Assembly: GCA_965218095.1 (NCBI GenBank)
Contig: OZ244587.1
Span: forward strand, 2,208,001 to 2,272,000
DNA: 64,000 nt
Source: Candidatus Poribacteria bacterium
Lineage (GTDB): Bacteria > Poribacteria > WGA-4E > PCPOR2b
Direction of reading: 5' to 3'
Below the pieces are notes generated by a model. The model was not told the origin of the DNA, did not search any database, and was given only the letters and a program-made list of their open reading frames with translations. The position numbers and the translations under genes are program-made. Below, one piece after another: positions 33,530 through 43,000 of this stretch (position 1 is its first letter; each line of letters begins with the position of its first letter).

Positions 33530-35737
33530 ATGCCAGATATCCGCAAATCACCAGAATATCAACGGTGGAGACAAGAGGTCAAACAGCGCGATGAAAACGC
33601 CTGTCGTGTATGTGGAGTGCAGCGTAATATCCACGTACATCACATCAAACCTTTCAAAAAATACCCTGAATTTGCCACCGAACTGGACAACGGCATCACA
33701 CTCTGCGGAAACTGCCACACTCTTTTTAGAGGTGAAGAAGAAAGCACCAATCTTCAAACGATTATAGAAGCGGTTACCGGTCAACATGATATGCGAACCG
33801 CTGACCAGTTAAATCGGCTCAACGGTAAATTTTGCGCCTATCTGGAACCCCTGTTAAAATCAGGGGATCGATCCAGAAGGAATAACGCGGTTTATCATCT
33901 GTTTGTCCAACTCCAAATTTATCCCGATTCACTTGACCAATTTCTTCCCCTTATTCAACATCTTCTAGATAGTGAAAACGGGTCCGATGAGGGGCTTGCC
34001 AAACAGATAGCAGTCGAATTTCTTAAAGGCAGCTCAAGCGGGGCGGCGTTACAGATGCTTAGCGAATACGAAAGACGGATTGAAGCCGAAAGACAAAGAC
34101 GGGAAGCGGAACTGGAAGAACTAAAGCAATTGCGACTGCTCGCCGAGCAAGGCGATGCCAATGCACAGAATAACCTTGGCGTGAGATATGCGAATGGCAG
34201 GGGTGTTGAGCAGGACGATGGGGAGGCGGTCAAATGGTATCGCAAAGCCGCCAAACAGGGCGATGCCAATGCACAGAATAACCTTGGCTTGAGATATGCG
34301 AATGGCAGGGGTGTTGAGCAGGACGATGAGGAGGCGGTTAAGTGGTATCGCAAAGCCGTCCAACAGGGCAATGCCTATGCACAGAATAACCTTGGCTGGA
34401 TGTATGAAAAAGGCAGGGGCGTTGTTCAAGACGATGAGGAGGCGGTCAAATGGTATCGCAAAGCCGTCCAACAGGGCAATGCCTATGCACAGAATAACCT
34501 TGGCTGGATGTATGAAAAAGGCAGGGGCGTTGTTCAAGACGATGAGGAGGCGGTCAAGTGGTATCGCAAAGCTGCCCAACAGGGTAATGCCAAAGCACAG
34601 AATAACCTTGGCGTGAGGTATGAAAAAGGCAGGGGTGTTGAGCAGGACTATGAGGAGGCGGTTAAGTGGTATCGCAAAGCCGCCGAACAGGGTAATGCCA
34701 CAGCACAGTATAACCTTGGCTGGATGTATGAACATGGCAGGGGTGTTGTTCAGGACGATGGGGAGGCGGTCAAATGGTATCGAAAAGCCGCCAAACAGGG
34801 CGATGCCACAGCACAGAATAACCTTGGCTGGATGTATGAACATGGCAGGGGTGTTGTTCAAGACGATGGGGAGGCGGTCAAATGGTATCGAAAAGCCGCC
34901 AAACAGGGCGATGCCTATGCACAGAATAACCTTGGCTTGAGATATGCGAATGGCAGGGGTGTTGAGCAGGACGATGAGGAGGCGGTTAAGTGGTATCGCA
35001 AAGCCGTCCAACAGGGCAATGCCTATGCACAGAATAACCTTGGCTGGATGTATGAAAAAGGCAGGGGCGTTGTTCAAGACGATGAGGAGGCGGTCAAATG
35101 GTTTCGCAAAGCCGTCCAACAGGGTAATGCCACAGCACAGAATAACCTTGGCTGGATGTATGAAAAAGGCAGGGGCGTTGTTCAAGACGATGAGGAGGCG
35201 GTCAAGTGGTATCGCAAAGCTGCCCAACAGGGTAATGCCAAAGCACAGAATAACCTTGGCGTGAGGTATGAAAAAGGCAGGGGTGTTGAGCAGGACTATG
35301 AGGAGGCGGTTAAGTGGTATCGCAAAGCCGCCGAACAGGGTAATGCCACAGCACAGTATAACCTTGGCTGGATGTATGAACATGGCAGGGGTGTTGTTCA
35401 GGACGATGGGGAGGCAGTCAAATGGTTTCGCAATGCTACCGAACAAGGCGATGCCAATGCCCAGACCTACCTTGGCTGGATGTATGAACATGGCAGGGGT
35501 GTTGAGCAGGACTATGAGGAGGCGGTCAAATGGTATCGCAAAGCCGCCAAACAGGGCTATGCCCTAGCCCAGGAGAACCTTGGCGAGATGTATGACAATG
35601 GCAGGGGTGTTGATTGGGACGATGAGGCGACGGTCAAATGGTTTCGCGAAGCCGCTGAGCAAGGAAATGCCAAAGCCCAGTTCCTCCTTGGCGAGATGTA
35701 TGACAATGGCAGGGGCGGTGTTCAGGTTGAAGGTTAA
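33530..35737 (+). CDS. HNH endonuclease fused to Sel1-like repeat array
   Basis: YQRWRQEVKQRD..CRVC...HVHHIKP...NGITLCGNCH; 14 complete plus 1 partial 36-aa SLR (AQ.NLG..Y..GRGV.QD..EAVKWYRKAA.QG); no signal peptide. Confidence 0.9.
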   Translation: MPDIRKSPEYQRWRQEVKQRDENACRVCGVQRNIHVHHIKPFKKYPEFATELDNGITLCGNCHTLFRGEEESTNLQTIIEAVTGQHDMRTADQLNRLNGKFCAYLEPLLKSGDRSRRNNAVYHLFVQLQIYPDSLDQFLPLIQHLLDSENGSDEGLAKQIAVEFLKGSSSGAALQMLSEYERRIEAERQRREAELEELKQLRLLAEQGDANAQNNLGVRYANGRGVEQDDGEAVKWYRKAAKQGDANAQNNLGLRYANGRGVEQDDEEAVKWYRKAVQQGNAYAQNNLGWMYEKGRGVVQDDEEAVKWYRKAVQQGNAYAQNNLGWMYEKGRGVVQDDEEAVKWYRKAAQQGNAKAQNNLGVRYEKGRGVEQDYEEAVKWYRKAAEQGNATAQYNLGWMYEHGRGVVQDDGEAVKWYRKAAKQGDATAQNNLGWMYEHGRGVVQDDGEAVKWYRKAAKQGDAYAQNNLGLRYANGRGVEQDDEEAVKWYRKAVQQGNAYAQNNLGWMYEKGRGVVQDDEEAVKWFRKAVQQGNATAQNNLGWMYEKGRGVVQDDEEAVKWYRKAAQQGNAKAQNNLGVRYEKGRGVEQDYEEAVKWYRKAAEQGNATAQYNLGWMYEHGRGVVQDDGEAVKWFRNATEQGDANAQTYLGWMYEHGRGVEQDYEEAVKWYRKAAKQGYALAQENLGEMYDNGRGVDWDDEATVKWFREAAEQGNAKAQFLLGEMYDNGRGGVQVEG
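34145..35714 (+). repeat. 108-bp tandem repeat array (Sel1 repeats) with a 648-bp higher-order duplication
   Basis: Near-identical DNA units; the block starting at ~34296 recurs at ~34944. Confidence 0.95.
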
Positions 35738-36294: not shown

Positions 36295-38178
36295 ATGAAA
36301 AAGTACTGTTTTTGGACCACCGTAACCCTAATCTTGCTGACCTGCATCATAGTGTCGAATTGCAGCGGCAAAGAAATGGCAGCGACTCCCGATGTCGCTC
36401 CCGATAGCGTTTTGAATGTCATCCCCCAAGACACCGTTGGGGTGATTTACATCCCGAGCTTACTCGGACTCAATGACGAAATTAACGCACTCCTCGCAGA
36501 AATGATTCCTTCAGACCCACCGCAAGAACTGCCCGCTAAGATGTTGGCAGACACTTTTGGTGCGGGTTTTGAGACGCTGGCGGAATTGGAGGAACTGGGC
36601 TTGGATCTGCAGAAAAACTTCGCGGTGTTTCTCTCCGGTGTGAATCCACCCGTGCCTTCTGCCGCTGTTCACGTTAAAGATGTAGAAAGCGTCAAACAGT
36701 TAATCGAAATGGAATCGGAAGGCAGTAGTTCGGTCACCCATAACGGCGTGACATATTACACCACAGGGGAGGGCGGTGCGTTCGTTCTGATGGATGATGT
36801 GATGGTCTATTCAGGTTCAGTGGAGGTCTGCGAAAAAGCCATTGATACCCAGAAGAAGGAGATGCCATCGATTGTCGCCAATACCGATTTCCAATCGCTC
36901 AGGCTCGATACGACATCTGGCCTAAATGATCTGGTTGCTTACTTTGCAATGGATGCCATTGTGGAAGCCTTCCGCCCCATGCTGACTGAGAAATCGGAAA
37001 CATTAAAGGCAGAAATGGAAGAATTAAAGGCAGAAATGGAAGAAATGGAGGCAAGTGCAGAAATGGACCCACAACTCGATGTCGGTTTAGGGTATGTCGG
37101 GAATCTGGTTGACAGCGGTATATGGCTGCTGGAGCAGTCAAAAACCTTGGGCCTTACCGTTCAACTCAACGGCAGCGACTTACAAATTTCTCCATTCCTC
37201 AAATTTAAGCGGGATAGCGAGATTCAACCGTATATTCGCCAGTCACCAATGGAGCTGACACACCTCAAATACCTGCCGCAAAATGCGTTCCTCAATGGCG
37301 AGATGCAATTTCAGAAGGAGATGTTGGTCGATCTCACACACAAAATGATGCAGTTGTTTATCCCTTCGGATCCGAACGCGGATACAGAGGAGATCGAAAA
37401 AGCATCCGAGGCACTTACTGAAGCGACGACAAATTTCTACGGAGGCTTGGGAGATGAGGCCGCTTTTTCCGTCAATTTCAGCGAGAGCCTGATGCCTGAT
37501 ATATTATACGTCTACGATGTGACGGACGAAAAGCAGGTTAAGGCGTACATGGAGAAAGATTTCATCCTATATTTGGGAACCTCAATGGCACTGATCGAAG
37601 CACTGGGAGTGGGTCAGGCATACGCTGGCATGTACGCAGATGCGTCAGCAGGTTCCCCTGAGATATACAATGGTGTGGAGATTAAAAATTTCATTCTGCC
37701 AAATATCGCCGCCCTTTTTGCTCAACTTCCGCCCGAAATGGAAGGCGTCGCTCCAGAACAGTGGAATATCTACTATGCCATCAACGGCGGCAAACTGCTC
37801 TACGGAATAGCGGGTAATGCCCAGCCGATTAAAGACACCCTAGATCGAATGGCGGGTACGGGGGCAGGCTTTGATCAAGGGGAAGGCTACACCAAACTGA
37901 TCGGTGCGTTGACCGTGAAAAACAACATGTTCTTGGCAATTTCACCTATCACAGCGGTCAAAAGTCTCGTACAGATGTTTGCTCAAGCGGATCCGAACGT
38001 CGGCGTGGTCCAGATGCTTTTGATGGACATTCCCGAAACCTACAGCATCGGTATTGCTAGCCAAAATCGGGATGGCGGCGTTGAAGGGAAGCTATTTATC
38101 TCAATCGGCGACTTCAAGGAAATCATCAATAAGGTCGTCGGTATGCAGGGAATGGAGGGAATGGAGAGAATGCAGTGA
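36295..38178 (+). CDS. Large exported acidic protein, probable lipoprotein (DUF3352-like?)
   Basis: AAGGAG RBS; signal peptide with Cys (VSNCSG); LNVIPQDTVGVIYIP N-terminus; no catalytic motif recognised. Confidence 0.65.
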   Translation: MKKYCFWTTVTLILLTCIIVSNCSGKEMAATPDVAPDSVLNVIPQDTVGVIYIPSLLGLNDEINALLAEMIPSDPPQELPAKMLADTFGAGFETLAELEELGLDLQKNFAVFLSGVNPPVPSAAVHVKDVESVKQLIEMESEGSSSVTHNGVTYYTTGEGGAFVLMDDVMVYSGSVEVCEKAIDTQKKEMPSIVANTDFQSLRLDTTSGLNDLVAYFAMDAIVEAFRPMLTEKSETLKAEMEELKAEMEEMEASAEMDPQLDVGLGYVGNLVDSGIWLLEQSKTLGLTVQLNGSDLQISPFLKFKRDSEIQPYIRQSPMELTHLKYLPQNAFLNGEMQFQKEMLVDLTHKMMQLFIPSDPNADTEEIEKASEALTEATTNFYGGLGDEAAFSVNFSESLMPDILYVYDVTDEKQVKAYMEKDFILYLGTSMALIEALGVGQAYAGMYADASAGSPEIYNGVEIKNFILPNIAALFAQLPPEMEGVAPEQWNIYYAINGGKLLYGIAGNAQPIKDTLDRMAGTGAGFDQGEGYTKLIGALTVKNNMFLAISPITAVKSLVQMFAQADPNVGVVQMLLMDIPETYSIGIASQNRDGGVEGKLFISIGDFKEIINKVVGMQGMEGMERMQ

Positions 38179-38282: not shown

Positions 38283-38648
38283 CTAATTTAGCGCCTCTGC
38301 GCTGAAACCAGCTTGCTTAACGGCATCGGTCAATTGGGCGGTGGTGGTTTTACCTTTTTCCAACTTGACGATTGCTTTACCATCTGAGAGAGAAACATCG
38401 GCGCTGATTACGCCGGGGACTTTAGTGAGTGCAGACTGCACATTTGCTTGGCAAGCCCCTCACGTCATTCCAGTAACAGCCAACGCGATCTCTTCGACAT
38501 CCGCTGCTGGCGCTTCAGCAGCAGCGGCAGGCTTTTCGGCCGCTTCTTGCGCTGTCTCGGCGGTCTTTTCCATCTTTTTCTCAGAAGCACAGCCAACAAC
38601 GAGAATTAGCGCCATGCAACAGATTAGCGAGAACTTCAGCATACACAT
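38283..38648 (-). CDS. Selenocysteine-containing heavy-metal-associated (HMA, CopZ/MerP-like) lipoprotein, 121 aa
   Basis: AAGGAGGT RBS; lipobox LVVGC; Ala-rich linker; LAVTGMT-TGA-GACQANVQSALTKVPGVISADVSLSDGKAIV...QLTDAVKQAGFSA, read through TGA 38460-38462 to TAG 38283-38285. SECIS-like hairpin downstream. Confidence 0.85.
38429..38441 (-). promoter_or_regulatory. Putative bacterial SECIS apical stem-loop
   Basis: GTGCA-GTC-TGCAC begins 18 nt after the UGA and closely resembles the E. coli fdhF SECIS upper stem (UGCAGGUCUGCAC). Confidence 0.65.
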
Positions 38649-38690
38649 CTGGTAGACACCTCCTTTTCAGGAAAAATAAAACTGCCTTCT

Positions 38691-38726
38691 ATTATATGTG
38701 ACAGTACAGGTTTTGTCAAATATAAT
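38691..38726. promoter_or_regulatory. Symmetric overlapping divergent sigma70 promoters
   Basis: Minus strand: TTGACA(38714-19)-N17-TATAAT(38691-96). Plus strand: GTGACA(38698-703)-N17-TATAAT(38721-26). Confidence 0.75.
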
Positions 38727-38799
38727 CTGTAGCAGTGGTAGATTTGTGGTCGCAAGAAAAGTTGATGGAAGTACCGTAAGGAATCAACACCCCAGCCTA

Positions 38800-41244
38800 A
38801 TGATGAAGCGATTTTACTGGATCTTCGCCTTACTCACTGTATTGAGCGTCACGATCTTCAGTGTGAACTCCCAGAGAAATTCCGAGGAAACAATTCCCGC
38901 CCGAGCTCATCAAAACACCCACCCACTTGCCCGAGATGTTCGCGTGATTCCTCCGTCTGCTACAGAGTCAATACCCACAACGCATAAATCCAGAGACTGG
39001 CAGTCCATTATCAAATCCGTCGGCATTGAGTCGGATTCAGAGAAATGTGTCAACTGTCACTTTGAAGGACAACCCCCAACACAGGCGCATCCGGAAAATC
39101 ATCTGAACCTCCATGAACCGGAGACATTCGGCTGTGTCCTTTGTCACGGCGGCAATCCACGGGCAACCGAGAAGCAGGCTGCGCATTCCACCACAGAAAC
39201 GTTGCCGTTCCTGAGCGGACGCCAAATTGAAGCGAGTTGTGGAAAGTGCCATACTGAGCCTGCGGTGCCGGGCGCCCATTCGCTCTCCGGCGGACGATTT
39301 GTGTTGAACAGATATGGCTGTGTGACCTGTCACAACCTGCCGGTAGAAATTCCCATCGCACGGTATGCGCCTCACCTAGACACAATTGGCAATAAAGTCA
39401 CCAGAGAATGGCTGGGGCAGTGGCTTGAAGACCCGACGGTTTATCTTCCAGAATCGAAGATGCCTGAAATCGAGATGACGGAGCGTGAGCGTGAAGCCAT
39501 CATCGAATTTCTCCTGACCTTGCGGGCTGATACGCTCTTCCGACCAATCCCCGGGGAAGGCAATCCCGAAAAAGGGGAAAAGATCTTCGTAGACTTTGAA
39601 TGCCAATCTTGTCATGTGGTACGCGGGGTGGGTGATAAAATCGGTCCTGCGCTTGATCAGGTCGGGACAAAGGTAAACCGCCTATGGCTCATGAACTATC
39701 TCCGCAAACCGGCAGCGTTTCATCCGAATACAAAGATGCCGGATTACGAGTTCCTGAACCAGGAGATCCTGGATGTCACCGAATATTTGCTGCGTAATTT
39801 TTCCGATGGGGCGACCGTTTTAGAAAGATTTCCGGATGATTCCCCCAATCCCACCCAAGCCCATGAGGGGTTTAAGCTCTACATCAGCAAGGGCTGCGCA
39901 CAGTGTCATGGAATCACGAAATACATGCGGGTGAATATCACCGATCAGTTGAAGCAGTGGGATATTGGCGGAGCCGTCGATCGGGTTCAAACGCATCGAG
40001 GAAAGCGAATCGAGGTCCCAGAAATCGACATGCCAGAATCGGACGCCGCATTGATGGAGATCGCTCTTTTAGCGATGCGACAAAATGACATCTATAAAGA
40101 TCTGGTGTACGATTTGGAAGAGGGAACGCTGGGACATACGGAGGGATTTTTAGAGGCATTCTGGCAGTTTCCTGTACCGCTTCAGGGAGAATTACCGGGC
40201 TATTACAATGAAACGAGCTCAAAACTCACCCCAGACTCGTGTGGAAGTTGCCATACCAAACAGTGGGAAGATTGGAAGACAACCCGCCATGCGGTTGCAA
40301 TGGGACCCGGAGTTTGGGGACAGTTAATCGGGCAGAGTCCGGGGTTCGTTGAAAACTGTTCTCAATGCCACGCGCCATTATCTGAACAACACGAATACTT
40401 GCCAACATCAGATGGCGACTACGCCGAAAATCAGCAGTATGACGCACAACTCCAAGCCCATGGGCTTACCTGTGCCGCCTGTCATGTTCGAGGCCATCAA
40501 CGCTTTGGACCTCCTTTCTCAGAAACCGCTGCTGCGGCAAATGTTTTTAGCGAAGGGCATCATGGGGGCGCAGTCGTGAGTCGAGCGTATGAAGATTCAG
40601 CTTTCTGTAAGCCGTGTCATCAATTTGAGGAAGGTGGGTTTAGTCTAAACGGGAAACTCTTGGAAAACACGTACAACGAATGGCTCGAAAGCCCCCATGC
40701 CAGGGATGGGAAAACATGTCAATCGTGTCATATGCCGGACCGCAGGCATCGGTGGCGAGGCATTCATGATCCGGAAACAGTGCGAAAGGCTCTAAAACTG
40801 AACGTCGAGATGAAGAATCAGCAGGAGAACATCGAAGCTGAAATTCGGCTGACAAACGTGGGGGCGGGGCATTACCTGCCGACCTACGTAACACCAGCGA
40901 TTTTTATCACAGTGCGGATGCTGAATTCCGCTGGAAACCCGGCGCCTGATACGGAGCAGGTGCGCGTAATTCAACGGCGAGTTCCCTTGACGCTGGACCG
41001 GGAAGTCTTTGACACCCGCATCCCCGCCGGAGGAACCTGGGCCTATACTTATCGAGCGTCTCGTCCCAAACAGGTAGACATCCTTGAAATCCGCCTTGAT
41101 GTGCATCCGGATCATTTTTACAATGGATTCTTCAAAGAATATCACGTAAACGATTGGAATGCGCAACAGCACATCGACAAAGCCTTTGAGATTACTGAAA
41201 ACAGCCCGTACCTGCTGTTGACCAAACAGATTGCTTTGGAATAA
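38800..41244 (+). CDS. Exported multiheme c-type cytochrome (11 CxxCH)
   Basis: Signal/anchor, then CVNCH, CVLCH, CGKCH, CVTCH, CQSCH, CAQCH, CGSCH, CSQCH, CAACH, CKPCH, CQSCH. C-terminal c554-like domain (TYNEW..S, NVGAGHYLPT). Confidence 0.92.
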   Translation: MMKRFYWIFALLTVLSVTIFSVNSQRNSEETIPARAHQNTHPLARDVRVIPPSATESIPTTHKSRDWQSIIKSVGIESDSEKCVNCHFEGQPPTQAHPENHLNLHEPETFGCVLCHGGNPRATEKQAAHSTTETLPFLSGRQIEASCGKCHTEPAVPGAHSLSGGRFVLNRYGCVTCHNLPVEIPIARYAPHLDTIGNKVTREWLGQWLEDPTVYLPESKMPEIEMTEREREAIIEFLLTLRADTLFRPIPGEGNPEKGEKIFVDFECQSCHVVRGVGDKIGPALDQVGTKVNRLWLMNYLRKPAAFHPNTKMPDYEFLNQEILDVTEYLLRNFSDGATVLERFPDDSPNPTQAHEGFKLYISKGCAQCHGITKYMRVNITDQLKQWDIGGAVDRVQTHRGKRIEVPEIDMPESDAALMEIALLAMRQNDIYKDLVYDLEEGTLGHTEGFLEAFWQFPVPLQGELPGYYNETSSKLTPDSCGSCHTKQWEDWKTTRHAVAMGPGVWGQLIGQSPGFVENCSQCHAPLSEQHEYLPTSDGDYAENQQYDAQLQAHGLTCAACHVRGHQRFGPPFSETAAAANVFSEGHHGGAVVSRAYEDSAFCKPCHQFEEGGFSLNGKLLENTYNEWLESPHARDGKTCQSCHMPDRRHRWRGIHDPETVRKALKLNVEMKNQQENIEAEIRLTNVGAGHYLPTYVTPAIFITVRMLNSAGNPAPDTEQVRVIQRRVPLTLDREVFDTRIPAGGTWAYTYRASRPKQVDILEIRLDVHPDHFYNGFFKEYHVNDWNAQQHIDKAFEITENSPYLLLTKQIALE

Positions 41245-41353: not shown

Positions 41354-43000
41354 ATGATGCCTCGGCTTCTCATCCATCGGATAGCTTCCATCGCCCTTTG
41401 CCTGTGGCTGATCGCTGTTTGCTGGCAGCCCCCTGCCGTTCAAGCCCAAGATTCGTCTGAATTCACCGAGGCTGTTGAACGCTATCGCACTCGCATCCGT
41501 AAAGAACCGGAGAATCTTGAACTGCATCGGCAGATGATTGAACATGCCCGGCAAACCAATCGGTTAGCGGTCCCGCTGTACATCTACACGATCTCCTATG
41601 AGAAACAGCCCACGAACACAACTGTCCTCTATGTTTTGGGGTACAGCTATCTGATAGATGCTTCTGAAACCGCCCTGATGGAAGCTGAAAGACTTTTTCA
41701 AGCAGCAATCGCGGAGCACTCCCAGTTCGCTGAAGCTTATGTCGCTTTGGGCAGATGCTACATAGCGCAGGGGAAAACTGAGGCAGGGTTCGAGGCGTTT
41801 CAAAAAAGTCTCCAAATCAACCCCAACTTTTGGGAGGCCAACCTTGAACTTGGAAATTACTATCGTGATCAGAAGGACTATCGGTCAGCAATCGAGCATT
41901 ACATGCAGAGCCTTGCCCCACGTCCAAAAGCAGCCACCACGCACTTTAATCTCGGTACGGTGTACCGCATTATGGGCAAACTTGAGGCGGCGCGTCAAGC
42001 CTTTGCGCAGGCGAGCAAACATGATAAAAAATATGCCGATGCCTACTATCAGTTGGGGCAGATCTACGCTTTGCAGGGCAAACCGGACGATGCGCTAAAG
42101 CAGTATCGCAAGGGACAGAGGCTTGATCCAAACAACGCAAATGTTCGATACCAACTCGCGCATATCTTCCTGGACCAAAACGACGAGCGTCACGCCATCC
42201 TATCCGTGCGGAGTGCATTGGCAATAGACGCGAAATATGTGGAATATGTGGAAAGATTGGAAGATGTGAGCATATCCCGTGCTGCGGAGATAATCGCGCA
42301 AATCCTCCAGGAACACCCGGATAACGCAGACCTCCAACACTTCGCTGGTGAATTAATTCTGAAGATTGACCTTCCGGAAGGAACCCGACAATGCCTTGAG
42401 CGTTCGAAAGCCCTTGATCCGAACCTGGTGGATGCCCATTACGCGCGTGGGATTGCTTACGACCAAATGGGAGAGATGGAAAAAGCAATGGCTGAATTCC
42501 AGAAAGCGGCTGAACTCAATCCGAACGATCCAAGACCTCACCTTTATCTCGGGAAAAGATATGCGAATGGCGGACAACCCCGGAAGGCGATTTCCGCTTT
42601 TGCGAAAGCCATCGAAGCCGATCCGGAGAATGTCGAGGCGCTTAAAGACTACGCCTTCTTGTGCCTCGCCTACGATGAGAAAGGCGGATGGAAGCGGGCG
42701 AAACGCGCACTTGAGACGGCAATTCAAATTCGCCCCGGCGATCCGGAAATCTTGATGAATTACGGACACACGCTCTTAATGAGCCAGGAAAATCACGAGG
42801 CGATTATCTACTATTTGCGCGCAATTGAACTCAAACCCGATTGGGTATTGAGCCACTATAACTTGGCAATTGCTTATGAAACAATTGGGAAAAAAAAACT
42901 CGCCTTAGCGGAATACCAAAAGGTGATGCAACTCGATTTGGAGGGGAGTTACGGCGAAAAGGCGTCGGAACGCATCCGGGTTTTGGAGGAGGAGAAGTGA
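41354..43000 (+). CDS. Exported TPR-repeat protein
   Basis: GGAGG RBS; signal peptide (AVQA|Q); many TPRs. Confidence 0.88.
   Translation: MMPRLLIHRIASIALCLWLIAVCWQPPAVQAQDSSEFTEAVERYRTRIRKEPENLELHRQMIEHARQTNRLAVPLYIYTISYEKQPTNTTVLYVLGYSYLIDASETALMEAERLFQAAIAEHSQFAEAYVALGRCYIAQGKTEAGFEAFQKSLQINPNFWEANLELGNYYRDQKDYRSAIEHYMQSLAPRPKAATTHFNLGTVYRIMGKLEAARQAFAQASKHDKKYADAYYQLGQIYALQGKPDDALKQYRKGQRLDPNNANVRYQLAHIFLDQNDERHAILSVRSALAIDAKYVEYVERLEDVSISRAAEIIAQILQEHPDNADLQHFAGELILKIDLPEGTRQCLERSKALDPNLVDAHYARGIAYDQMGEMEKAMAEFQKAAELNPNDPRPHLYLGKRYANGGQPRKAISAFAKAIEADPENVEALKDYAFLCLAYDEKGGWKRAKRALETAIQIRPGDPEILMNYGHTLLMSQENHEAIIYYLRAIELKPDWVLSHYNLAIAYETIGKKKLALAEYQKVMQLDLEGSYGEKASERIRVLEEEK

Follow-up and report, generated by a model that had tools for sequence, protein, structure and literature searches.

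On the minus strand of a 64,000-nucleotide stretch of a Candidatus Poribacteria genome (GenBank assembly GCA_965218095.1, contig OZ244587.1, positions 2,208,001 to 2,272,000; hereafter the window, whose numbering is used throughout), positions 38648..38283 hold a short gene with an in-frame TGA. The frame begins with an ATG at 38648 and, under the standard code, comprises 62 codons closed by the TGA at 38462-38460; with this TGA read as selenocysteine (Sec, U), it yields a protein of 121 amino acids and ends at a TAG 58 residues past the Sec position. The TGA stands exactly at the first Cys of the HMA metal-binding motif, and the metal loop of the read-through protein is G-M-T-U-G-A-C. We propose, at a probability of roughly 0.8 for the statement as a whole, that this is one gene encoding a 121-residue selenoprotein, a lipoprotein whose Sec-containing HMA domain serves as a soft-metal chaperone. 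The gene and its parts are as follows.

38691..38719, minus strand: sigma-70-type promoter, TTGACA at 38719..38714, 17-nucleotide (nt) spacer and TATAAT at 38696..38691 (12/12 consensus matches)
38659..38665, minus strand: ribosome-binding site AAGGAGG, 10 nt before the ATG (direct reading)
38283..38648, minus strand: whole coding sequence, 121 codons including UGA-Sec codon 63, plus the TAG stop at 38285..38283 (frame reading; same architecture in orthologs)
38589..38648, minus strand: lipoprotein signal peptide, residues 1-19, with lipobox V-V-G-C (residues 17-20) and Cys20 as the predicted lipidated residue (motif)
38499..38588, minus strand: Ala/Glu/Pro-rich linker, residues 21-50, a predicted disordered tether (AlphaFold2 confidence; variability among orthologs)
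38292..38498, minus strand: HMA domain, residues 51-119, ferredoxin-like beta-alpha-beta-beta-alpha-beta (Pfam, AlphaFold2, fold matches)
38460..38462, minus strand: in-frame TGA, codon 63, predicted first metal ligand of the G-M-T-U-G-A-C loop (homolog alignment; solved HMA domains)
38429..38441, minus strand: hairpin GUGCA-GUC-UGCAC of the selenocysteine insertion sequence (SECIS) type (pairing conserved in 46 homologs; frozen synonymous codons)

These elements agree with a preliminary description made from the letters of the window, which had pointed to a 62-residue open reading frame ending at a TGA where the first HMA cysteine belongs, a complete CopZ/MerP-type domain on reading through to the TAG, a GTGCA-GTC-TGCAC hairpin 18 nt past the UGA, a strong ribosome-binding site, a lipobox and a perfect promoter. 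Each was found in place: the TGA at 38462-38460, a 121-residue product with the Pfam HMA match running across the TGA, the hairpin at 38441..38429, and AAGGAGG, V-V-G-C and all 12 promoter matches upstream or at the N-terminus.

The N-terminus of the frame (M-C-M-L-K-F-S-L-I-C-C-M-A-L-I-L-V-V-G-C) passes a lipoprotein motif check, with K5, a hydrophobic core and V17-V18-G19-C20; the lipobox consensus is [LVI][ASTVI][GAS]C. Residues G19, C20, A21, S22 and E23 are invariant in alignment A1, which, like the AlphaFold2 input, comprised 15 of the 20 family orthologs available, and the linker behind them varies among orthologs in both length and sequence. A periplasmic, membrane-tethered location is predicted from just two features, the signal peptide and the lipobox motif. 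The promoter pattern TTGACA-N17-TAnAAT is present in 14 of the 15 orthologous upstream regions listed (the window's own included), 34-50 nt into the 110-nt upstream stretch (39-40 nt in nine regions, 50 nt in L026); the first hexamer is degenerate in L031. A GGAGG-like sequence stands at the same distance from the start in these 15 regions. Retention of the promoter suggests strong, probably constitutive expression.

The HMA assignment is supported by profile, model and fold. The Pfam HMA family (PF00403) matches residues 56-115 with 44.7 bits (cut-off 24.8; E 1.8e-11), and the domain therefore straddles the TGA. AlphaFold2 gave residues 51-120 a block-mean predicted local distance difference test score (pLDDT) of 92-95 and a beta-alpha-beta-beta-alpha-beta domain (strands 51-59, 80-86, 91-97 and 116-119; helices 64-75 and 103-112) in which position 63 is directly ahead of helix 64-75; residues 19-47, with pLDDT <50, form the disordered tether. 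A fold search of the PDB returned 70 matches at E <=0.001, and the best 49 of the 70 are all HMA-type metal-binding domains, with MerP 1osd (template modelling score 0.92 on the target, root-mean-square deviation 1.3), a plant HMA7 domain and CopZ 6ff2 as the best. In a sequence alignment with solved Cu-ATPase HMA domains, U63 falls on the first Cys of their GMTCxxC motif. The HMA fold needs the pieces on both sides of the TGA, as strand 1 and the metal loop lie before or at it.

Genes for selenocysteine synthesis and insertion are encoded in this genome, a single contig of 6.35 Mb. The preliminary description had named a search for sel genes beforehand as a test, and profile searches found selA (605.7 bits), selB (353.7 bits versus a cut-off of 242), tRNA-Sec directly behind selB (76.6 bits, anticodon TCA) and selD (371 bits, with one in-frame TGA of its own), all four above curated cut-offs. 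TGA terminates 40% of the open frames of at least 300 codons and is the commonest terminator in the genome; it is thus the normal stop codon here, with no reassignment. By its in-frame TGA, the selD gene (C1:5447425-5448348, minus strand, L013) probably encodes a Sec-containing selenophosphate synthetase, and a hairpin CCAGUCC-AGUU-GGACUGG starts ~11 nt past that TGA.

The in-frame TGA is conserved across the order to which this genome belongs. Forty relatives, drawn from four families of one order, were searched in six frames; all gave a match, and the best match contained exactly one in-frame TGA in 39 of them and none in G027. At all 20 loci taken from this search, and at all 24 Poribacteria loci of a named-genome collection, the TGA occupies the U of G-x-x-U-G-x-C in a gene of the same architecture; one Verrucomicrobiota locus, L070 (41% identity), yielded no entry in the latter analysis. 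We aligned 46 distinct TGA-bearing genes after removal of identical stretches, including a second gene of the same genome (L044, described below) and tandem pairs from other families: the TGA position is invariant (46/46), the downstream frame is intact and protein identity ranges from 40 to 79%. Over the 52 codons past the TGA, the ratio of nonsynonymous to synonymous substitution rates (dN/dS) is 0.03-0.20 in 19 comparisons with the window gene and has a median of 0.25 over 187 pairs, low values that indicate a translated downstream part under purifying selection.

Sampling of the whole phylum extended this pattern. Matches at E <=1e-12 were found in 141/151 genomes; by family, the counts were 139/139 in f1-f4, 1/1 in f7 and 0/10 in f5, f6, f8 and f9 together; loss of the Sec trait as the cause of gene absence in the last four was not supported, as selB was found in 4/5 genomes checked. 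Of the matches listed in this search, which are all but 162 of the total, ten lack a stop and every other one carries a single TGA; nine of the ten stop-free matches are HMA domains within longer frames (281-593 aa), and the tenth is an ortholog of the lipoprotein type. Cys orthologs comprise that of G027 and the metagenome proteins P0002 and P0003, which are 62-72% identical. The members of the gene family deposited in public protein collections are all either Cys forms or products in which TGA became W; in P0004, P0005 and P0006 the Sec position is given as W, which indicates that a TGA=Trp code was used in calling genes on Poribacteria contigs. Given that Cys orthologs exist and the Sec forms carry TGA, the gene family constitutes a Cys/Sec pair whose Sec forms are miscalled in public data.

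The hairpin starts 18 nt past the TGA, with a UGA-to-loop distance of 23 nt, and can be drawn either with 5 base pairs (bp) and the 3-nt loop GUC or with 4 bp and the loop A-G-U-C-U. Folded alone, the 21-nt hairpin has -5.1 kcal/mol (z -1.77; 12/200 shuffles fold equally well), and longer contexts are no better than shuffles (43 nt, z +0.43; 76 nt, z -1.04); single-sequence folding is therefore not significant and the significance of the hairpin comes from comparative data only. A lower SECIS stem, GGGGC/GUCCC, seen in the centroid of the single-sequence fold, was rejected, being not conserved in relatives. Across the 46 aligned genes, the five stem pairs are formed in 98.7% of 230 cells, a value reached by 0/500 shuffles, and slid-partner controls pair 8.7-70% of cells. 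The closing pair is A-U in 26 genes, G-C in 15, G-U in 2 and unpaired in 3, and in the G-C and G-U cases a Gln-to-Arg replacement (CAG to CGG) is matched by T to C at the third position of the next codon. Codon choice within the stem is frozen as well: Val is GTG in 46/46 genes (29.5% of Val codons genome-wide), Ala is GCA in 45/46 (23.6% genome-wide), Gln is CAG in 29/29 and Arg is CGG in 17/17, compared with 4, 4 and 5 codons used at the equally invariant Gly55, Val58 and Leu40. This freezing of synonymous sites is stronger evidence for RNA-level selection than the covariation.

A natural control is provided by the C-terminal HMA domain of a ~540-590-aa protein in relatives, which has a near-identical K-V-Q-x-A peptide (11 of 16 regions used; L122, L123, L125, L126 and L129 left out). 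Ala is GCG in 8/8 of its Cys versions, with Val GTA in 2/8 and Gln CAA in 1/8, and the 3 Sec versions again have the codons GTG-CAG-NNT-GCA. These codon patterns indicate that the hairpin is kept under RNA-level selection, which is relaxed in Cys paralogs. An RNAalifold consensus of the 46 genes extends the stem to 7 bp (-7.5 kcal/mol), and some relatives have a 7-bp stem themselves, for example L028 at -14.1 kcal/mol. The bacterial SECIS model, as set out in PMC13188914, has a loop of 3-9 nt, a stem of at least 4 bp, a spacing of 16-37 nt from the UGA, a G within the first two loop nucleotides (pattern N1-G-[G/U]-N-N2) and an energy limit of -7.5 kcal/mol. The window hairpin agrees with the geometry described there in loop, stem, G position and spacing; like the consensus, it is located just 3' of the UGA and inside the coding sequence, and its A-G-U-C-U loop fits N1-G-[G/U]-N-N2. 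Unlike the consensus, it is very small, with a 5-bp stem and no conserved lower stem found.

RNA-library data bear on the integrity of the TGA. Contigs from four sponge metatranscriptome libraries of one study start at 38163, 38225, 38239 and 38259 and end at 38611 or 38561; those of all four runs bridge the TGA without a base difference there, and the TGA is thus not an assembly error. A further six runs, of unrecorded library kind, contain 93-100% of the sampled words. The RNA-library contigs are compatible with transcription through the TGA; strand, start and translation are not readable from them.

These results bear on two further points of the preliminary description. It had suggested a hidden selenoprotein that ordinary annotation would truncate, a view now supported by the Sec machinery, by conservation of the TGA and hairpin and by the public miscalls. 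It had also called for homologs to be compared at the TGA position, with a simple nonsense mutation as the counter-case; relatives keep both TGA and hairpin, Cys orthologs have their Cys at the same position, and the nonsense mutation was not borne out.

The same genome encodes a second predicted Sec-HMA lipoprotein, outside the window (L044:1414-1770, plus strand; C1:3336210-3336566), with a lipobox L-F-S-C, a loop G-I-A-U-G-G-C and a Pfam HMA match at E 2.9e-12. Its hairpin, GUGC-AGUUA-GCAC, has an A.A mismatch at the closing pair, and the gene lies next to a BNR propeller gene and a transposase fragment. Tandem Sec-HMA lipoprotein genes, each with its own TGA and hairpin, are found in other families of the order (L094-L098, L100, L101, L105 and L106), and both copies of the tandem pair in G027 (L109) are Cys forms.

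Three neighbouring genes flank the Sec-HMA gene in the window.

38698-41244 (likely true start near 38800), plus strand: multihaem cytochrome c, divergent neighbour, ~815-848 aa with 11 CxxCH motifs (Pfam)
41354-43000: TPR protein, 548 aa, after the cytochrome
36295-38178, plus strand: 627-aa protein with a signal-like N-terminal segment, convergent with the Sec-HMA gene (no Pfam family)

The cytochrome has Pfam matches to FixO, MtrC/MtrF domain II/IV and cytochrome c7/c554, and the 627-aa protein matched no Pfam family and gave unnamed clusters only in an ESM Atlas search. Among 24 orthologous loci, the cytochrome adjoins the Sec-HMA gene in 4 and the 627-aa gene in 20. The neighbourhood was considered as a clue to the metal and rejected, as the cytochrome is present in few loci and the 627-aa protein lacks a Pfam family. 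The promoter of the Sec-HMA gene overlaps a plus-strand GTGACA-17-TATAAT (11/12) aimed at the cytochrome gene (38691-38726); the first hexamer of each promoter abuts the second hexamer of the other, and RNA polymerase could therefore probably sit on only one at a time. An unusual domain combination is encoded elsewhere in the window: the 735-aa product of positions 33530-35737 (plus strand) has an HNH endonuclease motif at its N-terminus and 14 Sel1 repeats behind it.

HMA domains also occur in longer proteins. A 915-aa HMA-bearing frame of the genome, which has no TGA, is taken to be a P-type ATPase. The ~540-590-aa protein of relatives that provided the codon control starts at its N-terminus with a membrane segment, continues with a PSCyt1 haem-c domain (CQGCH) and a WD40 propeller, and ends in the C-terminal HMA domain (copies at L115:135-1859, plus strand, and in L114-L121, L124, L127 and L128). 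Among the copies examined, the HMA loop has Cys in 8, which belong to two genera of the same family as this genome, and Sec in 3, which belong to another family of the order. A genome search found no cytochrome-WD40-HMA fusion gene in the window's own genome. In L112 (G002), two Sec-HMA domains follow a WD40-like segment.

Catalogues already list HMA-fold selenoproteins, namely UxxC P-type ATPases, NF041115 and a GOS 'MerP' entry of 2 sequences, in keeping with the statement of the preliminary description that Sec-containing MerP/HMA-like proteins have been reported and are rare. The Poribacteria protein is of the same kind as these, with Sec as first ligand of an HMA domain, and does not form a new category. 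With the UxxC P-type ATPases it shares Sec at the first Cys of an HMA CxxC loop, an in-frame TGA and a Cys/Sec pair, but their domain is cytoplasmic and fused to a pump, whereas the Poribacteria protein stands alone as an exported lipoprotein and has a long tether. A Coriobacteriia metagenome-assembled genome (L092) has an ATPase-length frame (711 aa) after G-L-D-U-P-D-C, without the Poribacteria-type hairpin sequence, and is, judged by this arrangement, a putative example of the catalogued UxxC cation-ATPase selenoprotein. NF041115 (UxxU), also a small HMA-fold selenoprotein, is the second-best NCBIfam match (residues 50-120); it differs in score (65 versus a cut-off of 95 bits), in its UxxU loop compared with the single Sec of U-G-A-C, and in being a 74-position model without the lipoprotein signal and tether present here.

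Among Cys-containing families, MerP (TIGR02052; 1osd, 1afi) is likewise an exported single HMA domain with a GMTCxxC-type loop and includes the best structural match, 1osd; however, the score is 54.4 versus a cut-off of 92.55 bits, the gene is not in a mer operon, and the Poribacteria protein is predicted to be lipid-anchored instead of soluble and has Sec in place of Cys. The CopZ/Atx1 chaperones (NF047957, NF033795; 6ff2) share the fold and loop, and NF047957 is the best NCBIfam match, but all scores fall below the cut-offs (NF047957, 68.9 versus 85; NF033795, 53 versus 91; NF033794, 50.8 versus 95). CopZ proteins are cytoplasmic and have no signal peptide, in contrast to the lipoprotein signal and Sec of the Poribacteria protein; JGI labels the Cys orthologs 'copper chaperone CopZ'. 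The MerT/CopZ fusion selenoprotein model NF045683 scores 29.8 versus a cut-off of 375 bits. Being below every curated NCBIfam HMA cut-off, the protein is not a member of these named families. A 2026 paper places Poribacteria among the phyla with Sec-containing hydrogenases, and a partial literature search, without supplements, found no paper on a Sec-HMA lipoprotein of Poribacteria.

In the scheme that we favour, the conserved strong promoter and ribosome-binding site would drive a monocistronic mRNA, and the hairpin 18 nt past UGA codon 63 would recruit SelB and Sec-tRNA(Sec), leading to insertion of Sec in place of termination. The product would comprise a signal with the lipobox VVGC, a disordered acidic/alanine-rich tether of ~30 residues and one CopZ/MerP-type HMA domain with Sec replacing the first cysteine of the metal loop G-M-T-U-G-A-C. 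After export and lipidation, the domain would hang in the periplasm, where a soft metal ion (Cu(I), Hg(II), Ag(I) or Cd(II)) could be bound between the selenolate and Cys66, and the protein might act as a high-affinity buffer or as a hand-over chaperone. The selenolate, always ionised and more nucleophilic, would bind more tightly and faster than a thiol and might suffer less oxidation loss outside the cytoplasm. Taken separately, selenocysteine decoding of UGA codon 63 is, on the comparative evidence, very probable, and we hold the metal-chaperone role with moderate confidence.

Other readings of the TGA fit the data poorly. Were it a true stop, the locus would be a pseudogene, or a 62-aa lipopeptide gene followed by a 52-aa fragment starting at GTG 38441, exactly the two frames that mechanical calling of open reading frames yields; yet the TGA and an intact downstream frame persist in 46/46 homologs at 40-79% protein identity, downstream dN/dS is 0.03-0.20, neither piece alone would be a folded HMA domain and no ribosome-binding site precedes GTG 38441, and we regard this explanation as scarcely credible. 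Decoding of the UGA as an ordinary residue (Trp, Cys, Gly or Arg, by near-cognate or suppressor decoding) would accord with the public gene calls that give W (P0004-P0006), but is very improbable in a genome in which TGA is the commonest terminator and the Sec machinery is complete, at a codon that takes the place of a Cys metal ligand, just as in other Cys/Sec pairs, and is followed by a SECIS-type hairpin whose RNA-level maintenance is confined to copies with the TGA. A different use of the same selenoprotein, with U-x-x-C as a redox centre (a selenenylsulfide/selenol-thiol couple) in place of a metal chaperone, deserves more weight, although it too is unlikely; electrons from periplasmic c-type cytochromes might, for example, reduce a metal, metalloid or disulfide. 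Most bacterial selenoproteins, including UxxC ones, are described as redox proteins in the catalogues consulted, PMC1976440 among them, relatives fuse the Sec-HMA module C-terminally to a haem-c (PSCyt1) and WD40 propeller protein, and an 11-CxxCH cytochrome is the divergent neighbour in the window and in 4/24 orthologous loci. However, fold and loop are those of a metal-binding HMA domain and not of a thioredoxin-fold oxidoreductase, the cytochrome neighbour is missing in 20/24 orthologous loci, and the window's genome has no cytochrome-WD40-HMA fusion.

Several observations weigh against the selenoprotein-chaperone assignment itself. We infer selenocysteine insertion from comparative evidence, and the RNA evidence consists of contigs of one study only, which end before the start codon and could reflect DNA carry-over. 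The window hairpin alone (-5.1 kcal/mol) is weak and lies above the -7.5 kcal/mol limit of the SECIS model, its 43-nt context folds at -9.3 kcal/mol into a different, non-conserved structure no better than shuffles, and the whole window gave no Rfam match at gathering thresholds. All G-C closing pairs come from one genus, so the double-sided covariation may be a single event. With regard to function, the score is under the curated cut-offs of every named HMA family, synteny is only partial, and the neighbours (multihaem cytochrome c, TPR protein and 627-aa protein) are not metal-homeostasis genes. A mer system was considered and rejected: the genome, 93.9% complete, has no MerT (0 matches) and no MerA above cut-off (best match 400 versus 454 bits).

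A broader and rather improbable extension is that the Sec-HMA module forms the metal-handling end of a mer-independent periplasmic electron-transfer system specific to this Poribacteria order. Soft metal or metalloid ions would be caught by the selenolate and reduced there by c-type cytochromes, with the module free on its lipid tether, in tandem pairs, or fused behind a haem-c domain and WD40 propeller. If true, this would add a new way in which metals are detoxified or used in metal-accumulating sponges.

For the selenoprotein lipoprotein proposed here, the more immediate meaning concerns the gene family. UxxC HMA selenoproteins were predicted almost twenty years ago, and the family described here is an unannotated one found lineage-wide in one Poribacteria order (139/139 genomes searched, four families), in an uncultivated sponge-symbiont phylum in which routine annotation truncates, splits or W-translates it; annotators should read this TGA through. 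The predicted lipoprotein would place selenium outside the cytoplasm at a metal site, a use of selenium that has already been catalogued, and its close Cys orthologs and paralogs make it a compact natural Sec/Cys pair for gauging what a selenolate contributes to an HMA site.

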